From Helicobacter cetorum (GTDB taxonomy: Bacteria; Campylobacterota; Campylobacteria; Campylobacterales; UBA6016), in the NCBI GenBank assembly GCA_022729705.1, contig DZAX01000005.1:11704-75703 (forward strand): a DNA stretch of 64,000 nucleotides. Direction: 5' to 3'. Under the pieces are notes generated by a model, which ran no database searches, was not told the DNA's origin, and saw only the letters and a program-made list of their open reading frames with translations. The translations under genes and the position numbers were made by a program. Positions 15,831-26,027 of the stretch are shown here, in pieces. Each line of letters opens with the position of its first letter. The first letter of the stretch is position 1.

Positions 15831-15890
15831 TCTGCCGCCTTGGCGGCTAGCGTAGCAGAGACGGGCTTTGCCTGTTTTTGCGTACTATAT
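15831..15890. repeat. mosaic hairpin repeat (short form of the 49621-49692 copy)
   Basis: tctgccgccttggcggctagcgtagcagagacgggctttgcctgtttttgcgtactat compared with tctgccgcttcatgcggctagc...gcgtagccaagacgggctttgctcgtcttggcgtactat. Confidence 0.75.
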
Positions 15891-15908
15891 AATACAAAGG
15901 AAATGATA

Positions 15909-17177
15909 ATGAACAACGAAACAATAGCGATTCACGCCGGATACGACAAACACGCTGGTGAAAAAACAATGGCTGTGCCAATCTATCAAAGCACCGCATA
16001 TGCGTTTGACGGAGCCGAGCATGCGGCAAATCTGTTTAGTTTAAAAGAGCTTGGCAATATATACACAAGACTAATGAACCCGACAAGTACGGTGTTGGAG
16101 GCTAGATTTGCGGCATTAGAGGGCGGAGCTAGTGCAGCGGCTACGGCTAGCGGTTCGTCTGCTATATTTTATGCGATTATCAATCTTGCGGCGGCGGGTG
16201 AAAACTTTATCGCCGCAAACAATCTATACGGCGGCTCTATGACTCTTTTTGCCCATACGCTAAAGAGATTTGGAATAGAAGCGCGCTTTTTTGACCCAAA
16301 AAAACCGGAGACGATAGAGGCTCTTATTGACGATAAAACAAGAGCGATATTTTTTGAGAGTTTGTCAAATCCTAGTATCGATATAGTCGATTTTGAGGCA
16401 ATCGTAGCTATTGCAGACAAGCACGGCATAGTCACTGTATGCGACAACACCGTAGCGACTCCAGCACTGTTTAAGCCTTTATCCGTGGGTATAGACGTTG
16501 CGGTGTATTCCACGAGCAAGTACATAGGCGGACAAGGGCAGGGAATAGGTGGCATCATCGTAGATAGCGAAAAATCAACGACAAAAATCAAAGACAACCC
16601 AAGATACGCTCACTTCAACGAGCCGGACGCAAGCTATCACGGGCTTGTCTACTCGTCGCTACCTTTTCCATCGTTTGTTCTTAGGGTAAGACTCGCTCTT
16701 CTTAGAGATATTGGCGCGGCTCCTAGTCCGTTTAATAGTTGGCTGTTTATCCAAGGATTAGAGACTCTGACGATTAGAATGAAAGCGCATAGTGAAAAAG
16801 CGTTGGCGGTAGCGAAGTTTTTGGAGTCTCACCCGAAAGTAAAATCTGTCAAATATCCGGGGCTAAATAGCCACAGAGACCATGAATTGTTGAAAAAATA
16901 CTTTACAGGTGCGCAGGCTGGCGGGCTTATGAGCTTTGAAGCAGAAAACTTTGAAGCGGCAAAATCTGTTGTGAATAGCGTCAAGATATTTACGCCCGTG
17001 GTAAACATCGGCGATAGTAAATCCCTAGTGACTCATCCCGCAAGCACGACGCATTCTCAAATGACAAAAGAGGAGCTAAAAAATGCGGGAATTAGCGATA
17101 CGCTTGTGAGGCTTAGCATCGGACTTGAAGACGAGAGGGATTTGATAGCGGATTTGACAGCGGCGTTGGCTTTTTAA
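15909..17177 (+). CDS. metY: O-acetylhomoserine sulfhydrylase (PLP-dependent Cys/Met metabolism family, about 422 aa)
   Basis: ETIAIHAGY N-terminus and STSKYIGGQG PLP-Lys motif. The start could be the ATG at 15903 or 15909, and 15909 has the better RBS spacing. Confidence 0.85.
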   Translation: MNNETIAIHAGYDKHAGEKTMAVPIYQSTAYAFDGAEHAANLFSLKELGNIYTRLMNPTSTVLEARFAALEGGASAAATASGSSAIFYAIINLAAAGENFIAANNLYGGSMTLFAHTLKRFGIEARFFDPKKPETIEALIDDKTRAIFFESLSNPSIDIVDFEAIVAIADKHGIVTVCDNTVATPALFKPLSVGIDVAVYSTSKYIGGQGQGIGGIIVDSEKSTTKIKDNPRYAHFNEPDASYHGLVYSSLPFPSFVLRVRLALLRDIGAAPSPFNSWLFIQGLETLTIRMKAHSEKALAVAKFLESHPKVKSVKYPGLNSHRDHELLKKYFTGAQAGGLMSFEAENFEAAKSVVNSVKIFTPVVNIGDSKSLVTHPASTTHSQMTKEELKNAGISDTLVRLSIGLEDERDLIADLTAALAF

Positions 17178-17237: not shown

Positions 17238-19904
17238 ATGACAGTTGGGCAGATAGAAAACAATCTTAATATCCTTATCGAAAAAATATCAAATGATTCG
17301 TTTGTATTTGACCTACTACTTGCTTTTGGTTTCCCCAATGCCACCATAAAGAGACTGCAAAACAGCGAACATAATCAACTGCTTTTTTTAGGGGAGTTGG
17401 CGCTTAGAAAGCATCTGTTTTTTAAGGTATCGACGGCGGATGAGCTGTATTCCACACTGGAAACATTATCCGCAGACCCAAGGGTAGTCAAGCACTCTTC
17501 ACGGTTTATCATCGTTACAGATTTCAATCAACTGCTTGCACTTGACACCAAGACAAAAGACACCCTTGACATCGTGATGACCGACATAGCCAAGCGCTAT
17601 GATTTTTTCTTACCGTGGGCTGGCATGGAAAAAGCCACATATCAGGACGAAAACCCTGCCGATGTCAAAGCATCTCTCAAGATGGCGAAGCTATACGACG
17701 AGCTACAAAAAAACAACTCTTTCAAGACAAAAGACGAGATACACTCGCTAAATGTGTTTTTGACGAGGCTACTGTTTTGCTATTTCGCAGAAGATACAAA
17801 TATCTTTGCCGATAATGTATTTACCGAGTCAATCGCATCGCATACGGCTGTTGATGGAAGCGACCTAGATACATATCTCTCACGACTATTTGAAATATTT
17901 AACACACCAGAAAAAGACAGAGACAAAGGCATCCCAGCCTATCTAAATGCCTTTCCATATGTGAACGGCGGACTCTTTAGCCAGAGTCACCCAGTACCGA
18001 AGTTTACCGCCAAGTCAAGAGCCGTGATGATAGAAGTCGGCGGGCTAAACTGGTCGGAGATAAACCCGGATATATTTGGCTCTATGATACAAGCGGTGGT
18101 AACACCGGAGCACCGTGGCACTATGGGCATGCACTACACAAGTATGCCAAATATCATGAAAGTCATTGAGCCGCTGTTTTTGGACGAACTGTACGACGAG
18201 CTCAAAAGAAGCTTTGACAACAAAACAAAACTCCTCGCTCTTCACAAACGCATAGCCAAAATCAAAATCTTTGACCCAGCTTGCGGAAGCGGAAACTTCC
18301 TCATTATCTCTTACAAAAAACTCCGAGAACTGGAAATAAGCATCTTAAAAAGAATCGATACCTTGTCAGCTCAACCAAGCTTCACATTTAGCGAAATCAA
18401 ACTCACACAGTTTTACGGCATAGAGCTAGACGACTTCGCCCACGAGGTGGCTATGCTCTCGCTATGGCTTGCCGAACATCAGATGAATCTGGAGTTTTAT
18501 AAGGCGTTTGACAGGACTACTCCGAGTTTGCCGCTACAAGAGGGCGGGAATATCGTTTGCGGAAACGCTACAAGGCTAGATTGGAGCGATGTTTGCCCAA
18601 AAAATGAGGGTGATGAGATTTATGTTTTGGGTAATCCGCCGTATTTGGGAGCAAGTATTCAAGCAAAAATACACAAAGAAGATATGGCAACAGTTTTTAA
18701 GGGCATTAAAAATTATAAAAACTTAGACTATATATCTTGTTGGTTTTATATTGGCTCACACTATATTCAAAATATAAATGCAAAAGTGGCTTTTGTTACT
18801 ACAAACTCAATTTGTCAAGGCGAACAAATTGAATATTTATGGACTCATTTATTAAAAAATTCAGAAATATTTTTTGCCCATCAATCTTTTAAATGGAAGA
18901 ACAGTGCAAAAGATAACGCAGGCGTTATAGTTGCAATTATTGGTTTAGCGAATAAAAGCAACATAACAAAAAAATGGCTTTTTAGGGAAAGCGTCAAGCA
19001 AGAAGTTGGTTTTATTAATGCGTATTTAGCAAACTCTAGTGTATCAATTATTGCAAAAAAAACCAAACCAATTTCTAAATTGTCAAAAATGGTTTTGGGC
19101 GATGCTCCAAAAGATGGTGGTAATTTAATTTTGTCCGCATTAGAAAAAGACGAGCTAATTTTTAAATATTCGGATATAGCAAAAATAATTTATAAATATA
19201 TTGGAGCTAGCGAATTTATAAGAGGACAAAAGAGATGGTGTTTATGGATTGAGGATTCAAATTTAGAACTAGCAACTTCAATACCGGAGGTTAGACACAG
19301 AATAGAAAAAGTAAGAACTATGAGGTTGAACAGCAAAAAAGAAGCTACGCAAGAGTATGCAAAAATGCCTCATAGGTTCGTAGAGATTCGATACAGAAAA
19401 ACTGAATCTACAATTATAATTCCAAATGTGTCTTCTGAGCGTAGAGAATATATTCCTATTGGTTTTTTGAATAGTGAAACAATTATTGCAAATTCTGCAA
19501 GTGCTATTTACGGTGGTTCTATTATTGATTTTGGAGTATTAACATCAAAAATGCACATGGTATGGATGCGAACAGTCGCAGGAAGATTAAAAACAGATTA
19601 CCGTTATTCATCGGCTCTAGTTTACAACACATTCCCATTTCCAAATATCTCACAAACCCAAAAAGACGAGCTAACAGAATTTGCATTTGGCGTTTTAGAC
19701 GAACGAGAATATCACAGCGAAAAAACACTAGCCCAGCTCTACGACCCGAACAAAATGCCGGAGGGCTTACGCAAAGCACATCATGCGCTAGATATTGCCA
19801 TAGAAAAATGCTACCGCCAAAAACCGTTTGAAAGCGACGAAGAACGCCTCGAATATCTTTTTAAGATGTATGAAGAGATGACGGGGAAGGAGAATAAAAG
19901 ATGA
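17238..19904 (+). CDS. MmeI-family (type IIL / BREX PglX-like) N6-adenine DNA methyltransferase with TRD; N-terminal nuclease motif apparently degenerate (888 aa)
   Basis: Collinear with MmeI as I recall it: LTRLLFCYFAEDTNIF, AFPYVNGGLF, MHYTS, motif I FDPACGSGNFLI (18273-), motif IV GNPPY (NPPY 18633-18644), SICQGEQ, YRYSSALVYNTFPFP, LAQLYDP..MPEGLRKAHHALD. Where MmeI has D..EMK, this protein reads LGELALRKH (17394-17414). Confidence 0.85.
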   Translation: MTVGQIENNLNILIEKISNDSFVFDLLLAFGFPNATIKRLQNSEHNQLLFLGELALRKHLFFKVSTADELYSTLETLSADPRVVKHSSRFIIVTDFNQLLALDTKTKDTLDIVMTDIAKRYDFFLPWAGMEKATYQDENPADVKASLKMAKLYDELQKNNSFKTKDEIHSLNVFLTRLLFCYFAEDTNIFADNVFTESIASHTAVDGSDLDTYLSRLFEIFNTPEKDRDKGIPAYLNAFPYVNGGLFSQSHPVPKFTAKSRAVMIEVGGLNWSEINPDIFGSMIQAVVTPEHRGTMGMHYTSMPNIMKVIEPLFLDELYDELKRSFDNKTKLLALHKRIAKIKIFDPACGSGNFLIISYKKLRELEISILKRIDTLSAQPSFTFSEIKLTQFYGIELDDFAHEVAMLSLWLAEHQMNLEFYKAFDRTTPSLPLQEGGNIVCGNATRLDWSDVCPKNEGDEIYVLGNPPYLGASIQAKIHKEDMATVFKGIKNYKNLDYISCWFYIGSHYIQNINAKVAFVTTNSICQGEQIEYLWTHLLKNSEIFFAHQSFKWKNSAKDNAGVIVAIIGLANKSNITKKWLFRESVKQEVGFINAYLANSSVSIIAKKTKPISKLSKMVLGDAPKDGGNLILSALEKDELIFKYSDIAKIIYKYIGASEFIRGQKRWCLWIEDSNLELATSIPEVRHRIEKVRTMRLNSKKEATQEYAKMPHRFVEIRYRKTESTIIIPNVSSERREYIPIGFLNSETIIANSASAIYGGSIIDFGVLTSKMHMVWMRTVAGRLKTDYRYSSALVYNTFPFPNISQTQKDELTEFAFGVLDEREYHSEKTLAQLYDPNKMPEGLRKAHHALDIAIEKCYRQKPFESDEERLEYLFKMYEEMTGKENKR

Positions 19905-20293
19905 GTAATTTAACATTTTCGGCATTTCAGTTAATAGTTGATGAAAAAGTTCCAAATATAAGTAATTTTATCGAATATAGAAATGAACAGTATGATACTA
20001 AAGATAATATTTATAGGGTCACTACTAAACAAATTAAAAATAAATATTATTGGATTTATATGGAATATGGTGGGGAATTGCCTTATGGTGAAAAGGTATA
20101 TGACAAGGAAAAATCAGAAATATTGAATAATCCAAGAACAAAAAGTCAAGCTGAGTTAAATAAGCAACTTTTCTGTCTTTATGATTTTGAACAACATACT
20201 TTTTATATTTCAGATGGCAGGAAAAAAGGCTTTCTTGAAGAATATTTAAAATACAAATTATCAAAAGATATAGTGATTAAGAGATTTTTTTAA
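19901..20293 (+). CDS. hypothetical protein, 5' part of a probably frameshifted gene (130 aa as read)
   Basis: ATGA overlap with the methyltransferase stop. Very AT-rich. The ORF ends in a T7 tract (20285-20291) and a stop-free continuation runs in the +1 frame over 20292-20492. Confidence 0.5.
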   Translation: MSNLTFSAFQLIVDEKVPNISNFIEYRNEQYDTKDNIYRVTTKQIKNKYYWIYMEYGGELPYGEKVYDKEKSEILNNPRTKSQAELNKQLFCLYDFEQHTFYISDGRKKGFLEEYLKYKLSKDIVIKRFF

Positions 20294-20540
20294 AAGTCCA
20301 GAACAATTTCTTGAACATGTTAAAACAATCGAAAGTATAAGTTTTACTTCAAAACACAATCTTTTTTCTAACCTAAAAGATATATTTGGAGAACCGAATG
20401 ATATATTTGGCTTAGGACAGCCAGAAAATTTTAAAATGGATATTACCTACAATGAAAGAAAAATGACGGAAAGTTTTAAAACAAAATTTTAGGAAGATAC
20501 GAACAAAGTGCAGTACAAGAAAATTTATTAAACATATTAG

Positions 20541-21002
20541 ATGGATTACAAAATGTATAGTGAACATATAAAAATTTTATTTTTAACAACTATAGGTATT
20601 TTTATAATATGCTTTTCTATTGATGTTTCCATTAGTGAATCATTAATGCAAAACTTTATCACTTTTCTTTCAATTACATTCGGTTTTTATATGACAAGTC
20701 TATCAGTTTTGTACGATTCAAAATATATTAAAAAACTATATGATGAAATTGACCCTAAAAAACCAACTCAACGAAAAATACATACCTTAAAAAGTTATTT
20801 TAAAGCTAGTGCTTATTGGTCTTTGTTTTCTATTGGCTTATTAATGATTTATTCCTTAGCTACAAAAGTTGAAAGCAATATTTTGGTTTTAAGTACTTTT
20901 TTTGAGAGTCTTTTGGTTTTTATTGTTTTTGTAAATTTTGTCTTTATGTTTCTGTTGTTTAATGTATTTATTAATGGCTTGGTTGAAGAGGCGGCAAAAT
21001 GA
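20541..21002 (+). CDS. small integral membrane protein, about 4 TM segments (153 aa)
   Basis: Four hydrophobic stretches (ILFLTTIGIFIICFSI, FITFLSITFGFYMTSLSVL, YWSLFSIGLLMIYSLA, LLVFIVFVNFVFMFLLFNVFI). ATGA overlap with the next gene. No family recognised. Confidence 0.55.
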   Translation: MDYKMYSEHIKILFLTTIGIFIICFSIDVSISESLMQNFITFLSITFGFYMTSLSVLYDSKYIKKLYDEIDPKKPTQRKIHTLKSYFKASAYWSLFSIGLLMIYSLATKVESNILVLSTFFESLLVFIVFVNFVFMFLLFNVFINGLVEEAAK

Positions 21003-21985
21003 CAGAAAATAGCAATATCCTAATCTACCAAAACGAAAGCGGCAATATCAAAGTCGATGTGAGTTTTGTTGACGGCTCCGTATGGCTATCGCAAGCACAA
21101 ATTTGTGAACTATTTGGCAAAGCAAAATCAACGATTAGTGAGCATATTAGTGCTATTTTTGAAGATGGTGAGCTGGATAGAGAGTCAGTTGTTCGGAATT
21201 ACCGAACAACTGCGAGTGACGGCAAGAGCTACGGTGTAGATTACTACAATCTCGATATGATAATCGCTATAGGCTTTAGGGTAAGGTCATCAACAGGAAC
21301 AAAATTTAGAATCTGGGCAAATGAAAAGCTACGAGAGTACATCACAAAAGGTTTTGTGCTAAACGATGAACGATTTAAAAACGGTACTTCTATGAGCTAC
21401 TTCGACGAACTTCAACAGCGTCTGCGTGAAATCAGGCTTTCAGAACGATTTTTTTATCAAAAAATCAAAGACATCTATATGACAAGTAAAGACTATGACT
21501 CAAAAAATGAAAAGACCATAGAGTTTTTCAAAATCGTACAAAACAAACTACTATGGGCTGTATCTTCTCAAACTGCCGCAGAATTAGTCCATAATAGAGT
21601 GGATATGAGCAAACCTCTTTTGGGGATGAACTCTTTTGATAAAGACTCTAAAAATGTAACAAAAAAAGATGTGAGTATCGCCAAAAATTATCTGGATGCA
21701 GAGGAAATAAAGCTACTTGGTCTTTTGGTTGAGCAGTATTTGGCATTTGCGGAAACTATGGCGATGCAGCAAAGACCGATGTACATGAAAGACTGGATAA
21801 CGAGGCTGGATATGGTTATATCGCTAAACGGCAGGGAGCTTTTGACCCATGCGGGGAAAATCAGCCACGAAATTGCAAAAGCAAAAAGCGAACTAGAGTA
21901 TGGCAAATACAAAGATGTACAGAAAGAACAACAAAAGATTCAGAGCATCAAAGAGCTTGAAGAGGACATAAAGAGGCTAAAATGA
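20999..21985 (+). CDS. RhuM-family (virulence/RhuM) protein (328 aa)
   Basis: N-terminal ILIYQNESGNIKVDV...VWLSQAQICELFGKAKSTISEHI..IFEDGELD..SVVRNYRTTASDGKSY.VDYYNLDMIIAIGFRV.S..GT.FRIWA is the characteristic RhuM signature, seen frequently inside R-M and defence loci. Confidence 0.8.
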   Translation: MTENSNILIYQNESGNIKVDVSFVDGSVWLSQAQICELFGKAKSTISEHISAIFEDGELDRESVVRNYRTTASDGKSYGVDYYNLDMIIAIGFRVRSSTGTKFRIWANEKLREYITKGFVLNDERFKNGTSMSYFDELQQRLREIRLSERFFYQKIKDIYMTSKDYDSKNEKTIEFFKIVQNKLLWAVSSQTAAELVHNRVDMSKPLLGMNSFDKDSKNVTKKDVSIAKNYLDAEEIKLLGLLVEQYLAFAETMAMQQRPMYMKDWITRLDMVISLNGRELLTHAGKISHEIAKAKSELEYGKYKDVQKEQQKIQSIKELEEDIKRLK

Positions 21986-23898
21986 CAAATTTGATAGAAG
22001 TAGAATACCACCAAACAGGCGAGAGCAAAAAGACAAATAGATACGGCATGAGGGAAATGCAGGAAAAAGCATTTGCCGCAAGAGCCGTGCAGTATCTGCT
22101 ACTCAAAGCCCCTCCGGCCTCAGGCAAATCAAGAGCCTTGATGTTTATAGTGCTTGATAAACTAGAGAATCAGGGCATAGACAAAGCAATCGTAGCTGTA
22201 CCAGAACGGTCTATCGGCGGTTCATTTGCCGATACAGACCTAAAAGCAGATGGATTTTTCGCCTCATGGGAACCAAATCCTCATTACAACCTCTGTACGG
22301 GCGGAGGCGAGACAAGCAAAGTTCATACATTCAAAAAATTCCTCTCAAGCGATGAGAAGATACTTATCTGCACCCATGCTACGCTTAGATTTGCGTTCAA
22401 AGAGCTTGAAGACTCACGGTTTGATAATATTTTGCTTGCTATTGACGAATTTCATCATGTATCAGCCGACGGTGACAATCAACTCGGTGAAGTCATCAGA
22501 ACCGTAATGCAAAACTCGAATGCGCATATCATAGCGATGACCGGCTCATATTTTAGGGGTGATAGTATACCTGTTTTGCTTCCAGAAGATGAGGCAAGGT
22601 TTACAAAAGTGACCTACAACTACTACGACCAGCTAAATGGCTATGAATATCTAAAATCTCTCGGTATAGGCTATCACTTTTATCAAGGCAAATATACGAG
22701 TGCGATAAATGAAATATTGGACACAGACAAAAAAACAATACTACACATTCCAAATGTAAACTCCGGCGAATCCACAAAAGATAAACACAAAGAGGTAGAT
22801 ACTATTCTTGATATTATCGGGGAAGTTCAAGAAGTTACAACGGACGGCGTTATACTTGTCAAAAGACATGACGACGGTAAGATTGTAAAAGTAGCCGACT
22901 TGGTTGACGATGACCAAAAGCGACGAGATAAAATAGTCGCTTATCTGCGAAATACCAAGAACGAAGAAGATATGGATCTCATCATCGCCCTTGGTATGGC
23001 AAAAGAGGGGTTTGACTGGTCATTTTGCGAGCATGCTCTTACCGTAGGATACAGAAGCTCATTGACTGAAATCATCCAAATCATAGGGCGAGCAACAAGG
23101 GATAGCAAAAATAAAACCCATGCACAATTTACAAACCTAATCGCCCAGCCGGATGCAGAGGATTTGCAAGTAAAACTATCGGTAAATAATATGCTCAAAG
23201 CGATAACCGCTTCACTGCTGATGGAGCAAGTTTTGGCTCCAAACTTCAAGTTCAAACCAAAATTTGATGATGATAATGAACCACTTCAAAAAGGCGAGCT
23301 AAAAATCAGGGGGTTCAAGAAGCCCTCAAGCAAAAGAGTAGAAGATATACTAGAATCAGACCTCAACGACCTCAAAGCCACAATCTTGCAAGATGAACAA
23401 ATGATAAAAGCAATACCCGGAAATGTTGACCCAGAGGTTATAAACAAGGTACTTATTCCAAAAATTATCAAAGTGAAATATCCTGATTTGAATGACAACG
23501 AAATAGAAGAGATTCGCCAGCATGTAGTCGTTGATAGTGTTATAAAAAACGGTCATATTATTGACCAAGGCGGCAAAAAATTTATCAAAATGGCAAACAA
23601 ATTTGTAAATATTGATGATTTGCGCATCGACCTTATAGATCAAGTAAATCCATTCCAAAGAGCCTTTGAGATTTTGTCAAAATCAGTGACAACGCAAGTG
23701 CTAAAGCTTATACAAGAAAGCATTGAGTCTACGAGAATAGAGATGACGCCTGAAGAGGCAGTGATTTTATATAGGAAAATTCCAGCTTTCAAAAGCGAAC
23801 ACGGCAGGATGCCGGATATTAATGCAAACGACTTTCAAGAAAAAAGAATGGCAGAAGCAATAATATATTTGAATAAACTCAAAAGAGAAAGAGCCTAA
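21982..23898 (+). CDS. SF2 DEAD/DEAH-box (ResIII-like) helicase with about 240-aa C-terminal extension (638 aa)
   Basis: Walker A KAPPASGKS, motif II AIDEFHH (DExH), motif III MTGS, motif VI QIIGRATRD. ATGA overlap with the RhuM gene. 1-nt overlap (TAATG) with the next gene. Confidence 0.8.
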   Translation: MTNLIEVEYHQTGESKKTNRYGMREMQEKAFAARAVQYLLLKAPPASGKSRALMFIVLDKLENQGIDKAIVAVPERSIGGSFADTDLKADGFFASWEPNPHYNLCTGGGETSKVHTFKKFLSSDEKILICTHATLRFAFKELEDSRFDNILLAIDEFHHVSADGDNQLGEVIRTVMQNSNAHIIAMTGSYFRGDSIPVLLPEDEARFTKVTYNYYDQLNGYEYLKSLGIGYHFYQGKYTSAINEILDTDKKTILHIPNVNSGESTKDKHKEVDTILDIIGEVQEVTTDGVILVKRHDDGKIVKVADLVDDDQKRRDKIVAYLRNTKNEEDMDLIIALGMAKEGFDWSFCEHALTVGYRSSLTEIIQIIGRATRDSKNKTHAQFTNLIAQPDAEDLQVKLSVNNMLKAITASLLMEQVLAPNFKFKPKFDDDNEPLQKGELKIRGFKKPSSKRVEDILESDLNDLKATILQDEQMIKAIPGNVDPEVINKVLIPKIIKVKYPDLNDNEIEEIRQHVVVDSVIKNGHIIDQGGKKFIKMANKFVNIDDLRIDLIDQVNPFQRAFEILSKSVTTQVLKLIQESIESTRIEMTPEEAVILYRKIPAFKSEHGRMPDINANDFQEKRMAEAIIYLNKLKRERA

Positions 23899-25049
23899 TG
23901 CTTTCGCTTGAAGAAATACTTAAGAGTGACCCGCTGGGGCTTTTGGGTGAGGTAAAAGCTCAAAATAGGGCGGCAACCGAAGATGAGAGACTTGTAGCCT
24001 CATTTAACGAAATAAATGATTTTATTGATATGCATGGCATGGAGCCGGCAAAATCAACGGATATGAATGAAAGGACACTTTTTTCTAGACTTCAAGGGTT
24101 AAGAGAGCATCCTGACAAGACAAAAGCCTTGAAGCCATATGACCGCTACAATCTTCTGCAAGAAGTAGAAAGTAACTCCATTGATGACATCCTAAACAAC
24201 GATGCTTTCGGTCTGCTTAGTGATGATGCAGATACCGTTTTTGAACTAAAGCATGTTCCAAAGCATAAAGAAATTGCTCAGGCCGACTTTATCGCTTCGA
24301 GAAAACCGTGCAAAGAGTTTGATAAATATGAAATACTATTTAAAGAGTGCCAGCAGGATTTGAGAGATGGCAAAAGAAGGCTTGTAAGATTCAATGAAAA
24401 ATTCATGGAAGAAGGAAGTTTTTTTATTCTTAAAGGGGTAATGGTCTATCTTGAAAAAATAGTTTCAGCCGCCAAAGATAAACACAATAAGATGGATGGT
24501 AGAACATATTGTGTATTTGAAAATGGCACAGAGTCAAATATGCTTATGAGATCTCTTGGAAGGGGGCTTTATGAGGATGGCTATTTCGTAAGCAAACACG
24601 AAGACAGGCTTCTCGATAAATTTGCAAATATAGCAGATGCAGACAAGCGAAGCGGTTTTATATATATCTTAAAATCAAAAAGTACATCTGAAAAAATACA
24701 ATCCATCAAAAATCTATACAAAATAGGCTACTCCACAATAGAAGTTAAGGAGCGAATAAAAAATGCCGAAAACGAACCAACATACTTAATGGCTCCCGTT
24801 TCAGTTGTAAGTATCTATGAATGCTACAATATGAACACTCAGAAGTTTGAACAGTTGATTCATAAATTTTTTGGTAAAGTTTGTCTCAATATAGATATTT
24901 TTGGAAATGATGGACAAAGATATAGCCCAAGAGAATGGTTTGTAGCGCCATTGGACATCATCGAGCAGGCTATTGAGCTAATAATCAGCGAGGAAATAAT
25001 ACATTATCGTTATGACGAGATTGCCAATGGGATTAGGGTTGCAAAATAG
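23898..25049 (+). CDS. T5orf172/MUG113-domain (GIY-YIG superfamily) protein with unrecognised about 240-aa N-terminal region (383 aa)
   Basis: C-terminal GFIYILKSKS...LYKIGYSTIEVKERIKN...REWFVAPLDIIEQAIELI fits the T5orf172 pattern (GxhYhL, KIGxT, R, EWF). Confidence 0.7.
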   Translation: MLSLEEILKSDPLGLLGEVKAQNRAATEDERLVASFNEINDFIDMHGMEPAKSTDMNERTLFSRLQGLREHPDKTKALKPYDRYNLLQEVESNSIDDILNNDAFGLLSDDADTVFELKHVPKHKEIAQADFIASRKPCKEFDKYEILFKECQQDLRDGKRRLVRFNEKFMEEGSFFILKGVMVYLEKIVSAAKDKHNKMDGRTYCVFENGTESNMLMRSLGRGLYEDGYFVSKHEDRLLDKFANIADADKRSGFIYILKSKSTSEKIQSIKNLYKIGYSTIEVKERIKNAENEPTYLMAPVSVVSIYECYNMNTQKFEQLIHKFFGKVCLNIDIFGNDGQRYSPREWFVAPLDIIEQAIELIISEEIIHYRYDEIANGIRVAK

Positions 25050-25074
25050 ACTTTTGACACATGAAGTTTATTTG

Positions 25075-25422
25075 CTAGTTCTTAAAATTCAAACACAAAC
25101 ACTCAATCAACTCTTCATATTCCACACTCGACAGTGTCGCTATTTTCTCGCCGATACGCTTTTTTGAGATAGCTCTGACATGGTTTATCAAAATATCGGA
25201 GTTTTCTTTGAGTTTTTCTCTACTTTTTAGCCTCATTCGGTACGGCTTCATGTCGTCCATAAGCGAAGTTGAGAGCGGCATGACTACGACGGTGTCTAAT
25301 ACGGAGTTTTCATCGTCGCCGGAGATAATGACGGCGTGGCGAATTTTACCTACTTCGTCGCCTTTTTTTGGGTTGAAGTTGATGGTGACTATATCGCCTC
25401 TTTTATAGCCCATCATCCACAC
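25075..25422 (-). CDS. MazF/PemK-family type II toxin (115 aa; start may be Met4 at 25413)
   Basis: KRGDIVTINFNP.KGDE.GKIRHAVIIS...VVVMPLSTS matches the PemK/MazF N-terminal pattern. Overlaps the upstream antitoxin gene. Confidence 0.8.
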   Translation of the reverse strand: MWMMGYKRGDIVTINFNPKKGDEVGKIRHAVIISGDDENSVLDTVVVMPLSTSLMDDMKPYRMRLKSREKLKENSDILINHVRAISKKRIGEKIATLSSVEYEELIECLCLNFKN

Positions 25423-25648
25423 CTAGTTCGCAAAATTCGATGTCTTGATGAGCTTTGAGCTTGTGCAGTTTTTCTAACTTCTCTTTTTTTTCTATCGCAT
25501 CAATAGCGGGCTTTATCAGCGCTTCGTATTTTGAAGATATGAAATATCCCAAACTTTTATTTGCCCGTTTGTCTACTATCTCGCCGATTGCGGTATCCTT
25601 GAGCAAGGATGGTTTATTTTGGATTGCTGTTACGCCAAGCGTTGTCAT
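25403..25648 (-). CDS. antitoxin, Phd/YefM-like (81 aa)
   Basis: Small ORF overlapping the toxin start. The N-terminus (VTAIQNKPSLLKD....EIVDKRANKSLGYFIS.KYEALI) resembles Phd/YefM. Confidence 0.6.
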   Translation of the reverse strand: MTTLGVTAIQNKPSLLKDTAIGEIVDKRANKSLGYFISSKYEALIKPAIDAIEKKEKLEKLHKLKAHQDIEFCELGVDDGL

Positions 25649-25755
25649 TTTTTATTCCCCATAGAGCATTCTATGATGATTATATCACCATTTATGAAAT
25701 TAAATAGCTATATGTCCAGTTTCACCATACTATAGTCGCTATTTCACTTACAAAA

Positions 25756-25941
25756 GTGCTAGGTCACGCCCTCTCTCGCCCGACGATATTCCCAGTTCCA
25801 GAATTTGCACTTCGACTACTCTACTCAGAAGGCGCAAAAGTATTAACAAGCTGGCAAAAGGTCTACCCAAAAAAGCTTTTGGAAGCTGGGTTTGCTTTTG
25901 AGTACAGCAAAATTGAAGAAGCCATTAAAGACGCTATTTAA
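25756..25941 (+). pseudogene. 3' relic of a TIGR01777/YfcH-type epimerase gene (DUF1731 C-terminal end only)
   Basis: LGHALSRPTIFPVPEFALRLLYSEGAKVLTSWQKVYPKKLLEAGFAFEY..IEEAIKD corresponds to the last ~60 residues of about 300-aa YfcH-like proteins. No upstream coding sequence remains. Confidence 0.7.
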
Positions 25942-25970: not shown

Positions 25971-25999
25971 TTGACATAATAGATAAAAGTTTGTATAAT
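25971..25999 (+). promoter_or_regulatory. sigma70-type promoter of groESL (TTGACA-17 nt-TATAAT)
   Basis: ttgaca at 25971-25976 and tataat at 25994-25999, preceded by TG. Lies immediately upstream of the CIRCE element. Confidence 0.7.
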
Positions 26000-26000
26000 T

Positions 26001-26027
26001 TTAGCGCTCATGTTTTTAGAGCGCTAA
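26001..26027 (+). promoter_or_regulatory. CIRCE operator (HrcA binding site)
   Basis: TTAGCGCTC-N9-GAGCGCTAA is a perfect inverted repeat matching the CIRCE consensus TTAGCACTC-N9-GAGTGCTAA. It lies about 30 nt upstream of groES. Confidence 0.9.

Follow-up and report, generated by a model that had tools for sequence, protein, structure and literature searches.

A YeeA(DnmA)-YeeB-YeeC locus with putative embedded passenger genes in a Helicobacter cetorum contig

Homologues of the type IIL enzyme MmeI fall into two sets, the second of which lacks the PD-ExK motif and differs in its first ~100 residues (Morgan et al. 2009, PMC2731913). Members of this second set were described as "invariably" flanked by a YeeB-like DEAD helicase and a YeeC-like protein with a GIY-YIG motif, and two of them, YeeA and a Moraxella protein, showed no endonuclease activity (PMC2731913). 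It was proposed that the MmeI-like subunit provides specificity and host modification, and interacts through its changed N-terminus with separate helicase and endonuclease subunits (PMC2731913). Here we analyze a locus of this kind in a 64,000-nucleotide stretch of Helicobacter cetorum DNA from contig DZAX01000005.1 (the whole stretch is called the window below), in which the gene for an MmeI-like methyltransferase is followed, after three other genes, by the genes for a helicase and a T5orf172 protein.

The Bacillus subtilis member of the family, YeeA (DnmA), makes N6-methyladenine at GACGAG, and its Y465A mutant is inactive (Nye et al. 2020, PMC7261158). A later study reported that dnmA-yeeB-yeeC synteny is conserved and called the locus a relic (mBio 2023, PMC9973331). 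In Vibrio crassostreae, yeeAB makes its host resistant to a subclade of phages (bioRxiv 10.1101/2021.05.05.442762). Our literature search returned no newer name for the triad and no biochemical characterization of it beyond these papers. A sequence-only reading of the window had presented the locus as an undescribed restriction-like defence system of six to seven genes; the word "undescribed" has to be given up, because Morgan et al. had already described this triad in 2009 and proposed this mechanism for it (PMC2731913).

The open reading frame (ORF) map contains all six same-strand ORFs that this reading had listed, and Pfam domain matches confirm the identities it had given to the MmeI-like, RhuM, DExH helicase and T5orf172 proteins. 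We arrange the genes as follows:

17238-19904, + strand: YeeA/DnmA-type N6-adenine methyltransferase (888 aa), core gene 1 (Pfam, PADLOC, alignment with MmeI 5hr4)
19901-20540, + strand: decayed gene, putative cargo 1, comprising a 130-aa ORF (19901-20293) and ~90 codons in two other frames
20541-21002, + strand: small multi-pass membrane protein (153 aa), putative cargo 2 (hydropathy)
20999-21985, + strand: RhuM-family protein (328 aa), PADLOC candidate PDC-S05, putative cargo 3 (Pfam, PADLOC)
21982-23898, + strand: YeeB-type superfamily 2 (SF2) DExH helicase/translocase (638 aa), core gene 2 (Pfam)
23898-25049, + strand: YeeC-type T5orf172 protein (383 aa), presumed nuclease, core gene 3 (Pfam)

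The overlapping junctions can be read directly in the sequence as ATGA at 19901-19904, 20999-21002 and 21982-21985 and as TAATG at 23896-23900, and the gap at 20293-20541 is indeed filled with frameshifted coding sequence, ~68 codons in the +1 frame and then ~23 in the third frame. Promoter and terminator scans inside the operon gave signals at background level only and were not used. The entire block was also found in one metagenome-assembled genome, GCA_022730395.1, on contigs encoding an identical helicase.

The window shows the features by which the second set was described: an MmeI-homologous methyltransferase with its target recognition domain (TRD) and without PD-ExK, divergent over the first ~100 aa, a helicase gene downstream on the same strand, and a T5orf172 (GIY-YIG) gene directly after it. 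The same three proteins occur in the same order and orientation in B. subtilis, where the locus likewise lies in a low-GC island adjoining a toxin-antitoxin pair, and the tyrosine of the NPPY motif is Y469 in the window and Y465 in DnmA. The two loci differ in the three embedded genes (2.1 kb) that precede the helicase in the window, whereas yeeB and yeeC lie immediately downstream of dnmA in B. subtilis. We assign the locus to the YeeA(DnmA)-YeeB-YeeC family; a point against this assignment is that the B. subtilis proteins were compared by description only. We consider it very probable that this assignment and the reading of the embedded genes as cargo, developed below, are both correct.

It is useful to set the locus beside other defence systems, for which we scanned the ORFs from 15.8 to 28 kb with Pfam, PADLOC-DB v2 and NCBIfam. 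The methyltransferase shares with the type IIL enzyme MmeI (PDB 5hr4) a homologous spacer, a gamma-class N6-adenine methyltransferase domain, a TRD and C-terminal domains, and, as in type IIL systems, it is likely to modify a single strand of an asymmetric site. Unlike type IIL enzymes, it has no PD-ExK domain, it always comes with separate genes for a helicase and a GIY-YIG protein, and the system is expected to need ATP; a type IIL single-chain enzyme was rejected because the polypeptide contains no N-terminal PD-ExK endonuclease. As in type I restriction-modification (R-M) systems (HsdMSR), modification and specificity are separate from motor and nuclease functions, restriction is probably methyltransferase-dependent, and operons of the window's type host passengers of the same kinds (RhuM, Fic, AAA_13/ABC ATPases). 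In contrast to type I systems, HsdS and HsdR are missing, methyltransferase and TRD form one chain, and motor and nuclease are two polypeptides, the nuclease being of the GIY-YIG type rather than PD-(D/E)xK.

The sequence-only reading had distinguished the locus from BREX, DISARM, type I and type III R-M, and on this point we agree with it: no partner-gene model of these systems was matched in the Pfam, PADLOC or NCBIfam scans. BREX was rejected because no ORF from 15.8-28 kb carries a PglZ, BrxC or BrxL domain, and PglX models match the generic methyltransferase core only (31 bits, against an NCBIfam cut-off of 500). DISARM was rejected because the helicase has no DrmA or DUF1998 match; DrmMI matches are limited to the methyltransferase/TRD region. 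Type I and type III R-M were rejected because HsdS, HsdR and Mod were not matched and the ResIII and N6_Mtase matches are weak and generic. Hma was rejected because none of the scanned proteins matches HmaA, HmaB or HmaC (PADLOC-DB v2, E<=0.01), MADS because neither the helicase nor the T5orf172 protein agrees with its PADLOC models, and ARMADA, in which helicases of other types accompany a YeeA-related methyltransferase, on the strength of the PADLOC, Pfam and NCBIfam scans. The core proteins thus differ from those of Hma, BREX and DISARM in matching no specific model beyond generic methyltransferase homology. PADLOC-DB v2 does not recognize the triad and labels its methyltransferase as an ordinary type IIG enzyme, so that annotation pipelines and readers may mistake the triad for a novel system or for MmeI in its classical form.

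Linkage and conservation of the three core genes

To quantify the linkage of the core genes, we scanned a helicase profile over one genome per species, which yielded at least 598 matching stretches. All linkage and slot counts given here cover the best 80 of these stretches (at least 598 in all), in which the partners were located by tblastn with the window proteins. The 80 loci span Campylobacterota, Bacteroidota, Pseudomonadota, Bacillota, Actinomycetota, Planctomycetota, Chlamydiota, the Candidate Phyla Radiation (CPR) and others. A T5orf172 homologue starts <=300 bp downstream of the helicase end in every locus with room for it (70/70), and 70/80 loci have an MmeI-like gene upstream in the same orientation; in the remaining 10 the contig continues for only 0-2.3 kb upstream, less than the length of the methyltransferase gene. 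The divergence of the three core proteins from the window copies is correlated (Spearman 0.75-0.86), as expected of a unit that is inherited together.

This linkage goes far beyond chance and indicates that the three core genes form a functional unit. The sequence-only reading had named coincidental adjacency of the methyltransferase and the helicase/T5orf172 pair as a result that would overturn it, to be sought in gene-neighbourhood conservation. Such coincidence within a defence island might be suspected from the 2.1 kb of other genes that separate the two parts in the window, but in view of the 70/70 and 70/80 co-occurrence across many phyla, the fixed order and strand, and the correlated divergence, its probability is negligible.

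The family is also carried by mobile elements. The helicase occurs on 233 plasmids, 118 of them conjugative; phage records gave 3 partial helicase matches only. Plasmids of Bacillus sp. BD59S and Vibrio parahaemolyticus carry the triad as adjacent genes annotated as DNA methyltransferase, helicase and GIY-YIG nuclease family protein, and the helicase of the Bacillus plasmid is 71.5% identical to that of the window. On many A. baumannii plasmids (e.g. NC_017848.1 and CP097879.1; our records H7, H8 and H13-H15) the helicase match is split or partial and adjoins ISAba1, and there the triad appears to be disrupted by insertion sequences.

The methyltransferase contains five MmeI domains in Pfam (MmeI_N, MmeI_hel, MmeI_Mtase, MmeI_TRD and MmeI_C), its PADLOC label is REase_MTase_IIG (1036 bits), and homologues of its N-terminus carry the label "YeeA" in JGI. 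It aligns with MmeI (PDB 5hr4) with E=1.6e-184 over residues 87-883, starting at MmeI residue 107. The N-terminal 132 aa alone give no match to MmeI at E<=10, and no D...ExK is conserved within residues 1-90 among 59 linked-locus homologues and 36 N-terminal homologues from protein databases; F22, F62, K63, R89 and F90 are the positions conserved in these two sets. The expectation that the nuclease motif had been lost is therefore borne out. We take F61-F62-K63 to correspond to the E-x-K position of MmeI, from an alignment made by eye with the MmeI N-terminal sequence. An AlphaFold2 (AF2) model of residues 1-260 is confident, with a predicted local distance difference test (pLDDT) score of 88.6; Foldseek searches with this model gave significant matches for the spacer only (MmeI 5hr4). 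For the N-domain, the matches were weak, to aminoacyl-tRNA synthetase anticodon-binding-like domains and to DrdV (E=0.012), with no significant nuclease among them; this domain may be either a dead nuclease scaffold or a new domain.

In the catalytic part, motif I (FDPACGSGNFL) and motif IV (NPPY, Y469) are conserved among homologues, and because of this conservation the methyltransferase is probably enzymatically active. The N-domain and the TRD are the most variable parts, with mean identities to the window copy of 44-45% (TRD, 45%), and the TRD-coding segment at 19045-19650 has a GC content of ~0.33, compared with 0.42-0.44 in the 5' part of the gene. The low GC content and the low conservation together suggest exchange of the TRD, with a change of specificity. 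At one other locus (L053, 5940-9741) the MmeI-like match spans 3.8 kb.

The helicase matches DEAD, ResIII and Helicase_C in Pfam, and its motifs are intact and conserved in 77 sequences: Walker A PPASGKSR, DEFHH, TGSYFRGD and QIIGRxTRD. Its identity is 62-83% even between distant phyla (e.g. Campylobacterota versus Actinomycetota or CPR), compared with 35-68% for the partner methyltransferase and T5orf172 proteins of the same loci; such conservation is unusually strong for a defence gene. It extends to the C-terminal region of ~200 residues (~430-638), which contains no known domain, and sequence-profile searches of the PDB with the helicase and T5orf172 alignments returned no relative. Some relatives (P0153, 1181 aa; P0124, 838 aa) are longer: in one helicase homologue, of 1181 aa, the query is matched by the first ~617 residues and ~560 extra residues follow at the C-terminus, a possible fusion, and one relative has a ~155-aa N-terminal extension.

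The 383-aa T5orf172 protein consists of an N-terminal region of ~250 aa and a C-terminal T5orf172 domain of the GIY-YIG superfamily (Pfam T5orf172, 6e-13, and MUG113, 3e-14; residues 253-362). G253, I255, Y256, Y274-K-I-G277, R286, N313, E318 and H322 are invariant among its homologues, which NCBI labels as "GIY-YIG nuclease family protein", and we presume it to be the nuclease of the system. The structural model of the protein is mediocre (pLDDT 69; predicted template-modelling score, pTM, 0.36). It gave no significant fold match in the PDB, its eIF5A/EF-P-like hits having a template-modelling score of ~0.14, and was set aside.

The slot between the methyltransferase and helicase genes

The distance between the methyltransferase and helicase genes is distributed bimodally (n=70): it is <=200 bp in 42 loci, 0.2-1 kb in 3, 1-2.5 kb in 19 and >2.5 kb in 6. 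Inserts of 0.6-6.2 kb are present in 28/70 loci, with 69/71 inserted ORFs co-oriented, and no insert was observed between the helicase and T5orf172 genes in the 70 loci. The commonest passenger is RhuM, which accounts for 9 (Pfam) or 11 (PADLOC PDC-S05) of the 69 annotated inserted ORFs; in 8 loci tblastn placed a full-length RhuM homologue immediately before the helicase. The other annotated inserts include AlbA_2/HATPase_c_4 (7), Fic (4), YhcG (2), PDDEXK_3 (2) and PIN (2), together with single cases of AAA_13, HamA, nSTAND3, TIR, SIR2 and AbiJ, among others. Sulfurospirillum diekertiae and Aliarcobacter cryaerophilus illustrate the turnover: in each the helicase is ~83% identical to that of the window and set in the same frame of a 5' MmeI-like gene and a 3' helicase-T5orf172 pair, and the slot holds AAA_13, Mrr-nSTAND3 and Fic genes in one and SIR2, DUF8370/8371, TIR and YhcG genes in the other.

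An exchange of this type can be seen next to the window's own RhuM gene. Contig L004 (JGI 3300000228) is 99.8% identical to window positions 20997-25285, the first of which lies two bases before the RhuM start codon. Upstream of this breakpoint (L004 1-1798), a 161-aa ORF, a 72-aa ORF and a 294-aa ORF6N/Rha-like gene replace the window's membrane-protein gene; the small ORFs of L004 received no family assignment. The comparison shows that a cassette was recently exchanged at a gene junction.

Of the three genes in the window's slot, the RhuM gene encodes a full-length domain (Pfam Virulence_RhuM, 5.4e-97; PDC-S05, 2.7e-129 over residues 1-325) and lies within an R-M-type operon in the direction of its host genes. 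By hydropathy, the 153-aa protein contains 3-5 hydrophobic segments, which makes its earlier description as a four-transmembrane (4-TM) protein plausible; it has no significant family match in Pfam, PADLOC or NCBIfam, and its gene occurs neither in L004 nor in the 80 other loci. The 130-aa ORF stops in a T7A4 run at ~20286-20296, and the gene is a pseudogene; contigs L001 and L003, both near-identical to the window, share this frameshift. The frameshift may reflect simple decay or a slippage-prone tract, and the repaired 219-aa protein matches nothing in Pfam or PADLOC. The 130-aa gene, the membrane-protein gene and the mazEF pair downstream of the operon were found in contigs of the same strain only, and in none of the 80 other loci.

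These observations bear on the claim that all six or seven genes form one undescribed multi-component defence system. It is true that the genes are all co-oriented, that their overlapping stop and start codons imply co-transcription and coupling, and that RhuM recurs in the slot at 9-11 other loci. Yet the methyltransferase abuts the helicase in 42/70 loci, other loci carry unrelated genes in the slot (SIR2, TIR, AAA_13, Fic), the 130-aa gene is frameshifted, neither it nor the membrane-protein gene recurs in any other locus, both are replaced in a 99.8% identical backbone, and the triad had been described in 2009. A single system of six or seven genes is therefore very improbable. What survives of the earlier interpretation is that the core trio belongs together and sits in an island beside a MazF-type pair; its novelty and its gene count do not.

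The slot is empty in 42/70 loci and filled with varied defence-type genes in the other 28, which argues that the 130-aa gene, the membrane-protein gene and the RhuM gene are exchangeable embedded cargo and not parts of the system. A YeeABC core of three genes with embedded passenger genes is in our judgement the best explanation of the locus, and a probable one. On this reading, three co-oriented and translationally coupled genes have entered the junction between methyltransferase and helicase, where they would act as independent or back-up defence or toxin modules co-expressed with the host operon. The embedded RhuM is most simply read as a toxin module that acts on its own or as a back-up and is expressed along with the operon.

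Embedding of this kind has precedents. R-M operons in which RhuM is embedded beside PrrC-like and Fic/DOC genes were reported in 2013 (PMC3710099), and a 2024 preprint on "guilt by embedding" describes co-oriented embedding of defence genes (96.7% co-orientation) in host systems that are named, in the text searched, as Hma, BREX, DISARM and type I R-M only (bioRxiv 10.1101/2024.01.29.577857). Like these hosts, the window locus is a methylase/helicase operon with a slot for co-oriented defence cassettes. The slot might go further and be a dedicated, often reloaded docking site for immune genes, with embedded toxins such as RhuM perhaps wired to the host system; we regard this extension as possible but doubtful. 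One possible wiring, by analogy with PrrC/EcoprrI, is that the YeeABC complex keeps the toxin in check until a phage anti-restriction factor knocks the complex out and so sets the toxin free. If true, YeeABC would be a fifth "embedding host" beyond current catalogues and a source of new defence candidates. As a recurrent slot, the methyltransferase-helicase junction offers a simple way to mine defence candidates and to probe whether R-M systems and embedded toxins are coupled in a guard-type manner.

Possible mechanism of the core

How might the three core proteins act together? Following the proposal of Morgan et al. (2009), the methyltransferase would read a short asymmetric site and methylate one adenine as a mark of self. 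At an unmethylated site, it would recruit or license the other two subunits, the helicase for translocation and the GIY-YIG protein for cleavage, and restriction would depend on the methyltransferase, as in type I systems. Methylation has been demonstrated for the B. subtilis homologue and phage resistance for Vibrio yeeAB; restriction by the helicase and nuclease of the window is what we infer from them and from the 2009 proposal. We hold this split-restriction mechanism tentatively, at slightly less than an even chance.

Several observations weigh against it. In B. subtilis, deletion of dnmA, yeeB or yeeC left growth, transformation and the plaquing of three phages unchanged (PMC7261158, PMC9973331), and the DnmA site is not depleted in phage genomes. 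In our own data, Foldseek assigned a fold neither to the N-domain of the methyltransferase nor to the N-terminal region of YeeC, and one cargo gene is already a pseudogene, so that some decay has occurred at the locus. The harmlessness of the dnmA deletion fits a type-I-like dependence of restriction on the methyltransferase, but a relic would explain it as well. Published genetic tests, one in B. subtilis and one in V. crassostreae, disagree.

If the locus were a relic, the helicase and T5orf172 protein would no longer restrict and the methyltransferase would persist for epigenetic regulation. The B. subtilis locus, with no phage, transformation or growth phenotype and no avoidance of its motif by phages, is what such a relic would look like, and the decayed embedded gene of the window points the same way. 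In the window copy, however, the catalytic motifs of all three core proteins are intact, the 62-83% identity of the helicase across phyla implies strong purifying selection, the triad has spread on conjugative plasmids, and yeeAB is active against phages in Vibrio. Moreover, the Vibrio YeeB and YeeC proteins were noted to have C-terminal stretches that are missing from their B. subtilis counterparts (PMC9973331). We consider a relic rather improbable.

Alternatively, the complex might defend without classical cleavage, through BREX-like exclusion, in which the methyltransferase would sense unmethylated sites and the other two proteins would block replication or bind DNA uncut, or through an abortive response set off via the complex. 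An undepleted motif in phages and a harmless dnmA deletion are both unlike type II R-M, the T5orf172 domain has been called largely uncharacterized with predicted DNA-binding roles (PMC9973331), and the methyltransferase is homologous to PglX and DrmMI. On the other side, the GIY-YIG-type residues Y256, Y274, R286, N313 and E318 are invariant, as expected of an active nuclease, a type-I-like, methyltransferase-dependent nuclease also predicts a harmless methyltransferase deletion, and the locus contains no BREX or DISARM partner genes. We regard defence without cleavage as unlikely.

The kind of system described here is already known, and its embedded-cargo architecture is a modest addition; the family is nevertheless worth biochemical study. 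The triad is very widespread, with at least 598 stretches in species-representative genomes and occurrence on 233 plasmids, and the window offers a clean example of the Campylobacterota type with intact motifs.

Borders and flanks of the island

The operon and the mazEF pair together form a block of ~8.5 kb between metY and groES. The neighbouring features are:

15840-17177: metY, left flank
25075-25422, - strand: MazF/PemK toxin, island neighbour outside the system (Pfam PemK_toxin, 1.5e-24)
25403-25648, - strand: putative 81-aa antitoxin, island neighbour outside the system (by position only)
25740-25941, + strand: 3' remnant of a YfcH-type (DUF1731) gene, ~65 codons, island border (Pfam DUF1731)
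26058 onwards: groES/groEL, right flank

A toxin-antitoxin pair had been said to cap the island. Its toxin half is secured by the PemK_toxin match (1.5e-24), whereas the antitoxin is placed by position only, and the 81-aa protein has no family match. The GC content is 0.26-0.34 over the TRD and cargo region (18.5-21.5 kb), 0.38-0.42 in the helicase and 0.43-0.47 in the flanks, so that the block is indeed poorer in GC than its surroundings, as had been claimed, but unevenly so.

The claim that the island replaced the 5' end of a housekeeping gene stands, since only the 3' DUF1731 part of a yfcH-like gene remains. The ORF at 25756-25938 encodes a C-terminal DUF1731 domain (E=6.8e-17, profile positions 1-47 of 47) with an in-frame stop just upstream. 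YfcH-type proteins normally carry ~250 residues before this domain, none of which is present at 25740-25941. The remnant marks the right border of the inserted island; arrival of the island, or a later deletion, would have removed the 5' part of the gene. A search for island-flanking direct repeats or att sites gave short repeats at chance level only.

Between the remnant and groES lies a perfect sigma-70-type promoter, TTGACA-17-TATAAT (12/12), at 25971-25999. Directly after it, at 26001-26027 and ~30 bp upstream of groES, is the inverted repeat TTAGCGCTC-N9-GAGCGCTAA, which resembles the consensus of a CIRCE/HrcA operator. Further downstream, contig L002 is identical to the window through groEL and then diverges (L002 6995-8451, with HTH_11 and HicB genes) from the window sequence beyond 28137, indicating that there is strain-level variation downstream of groEL as well.

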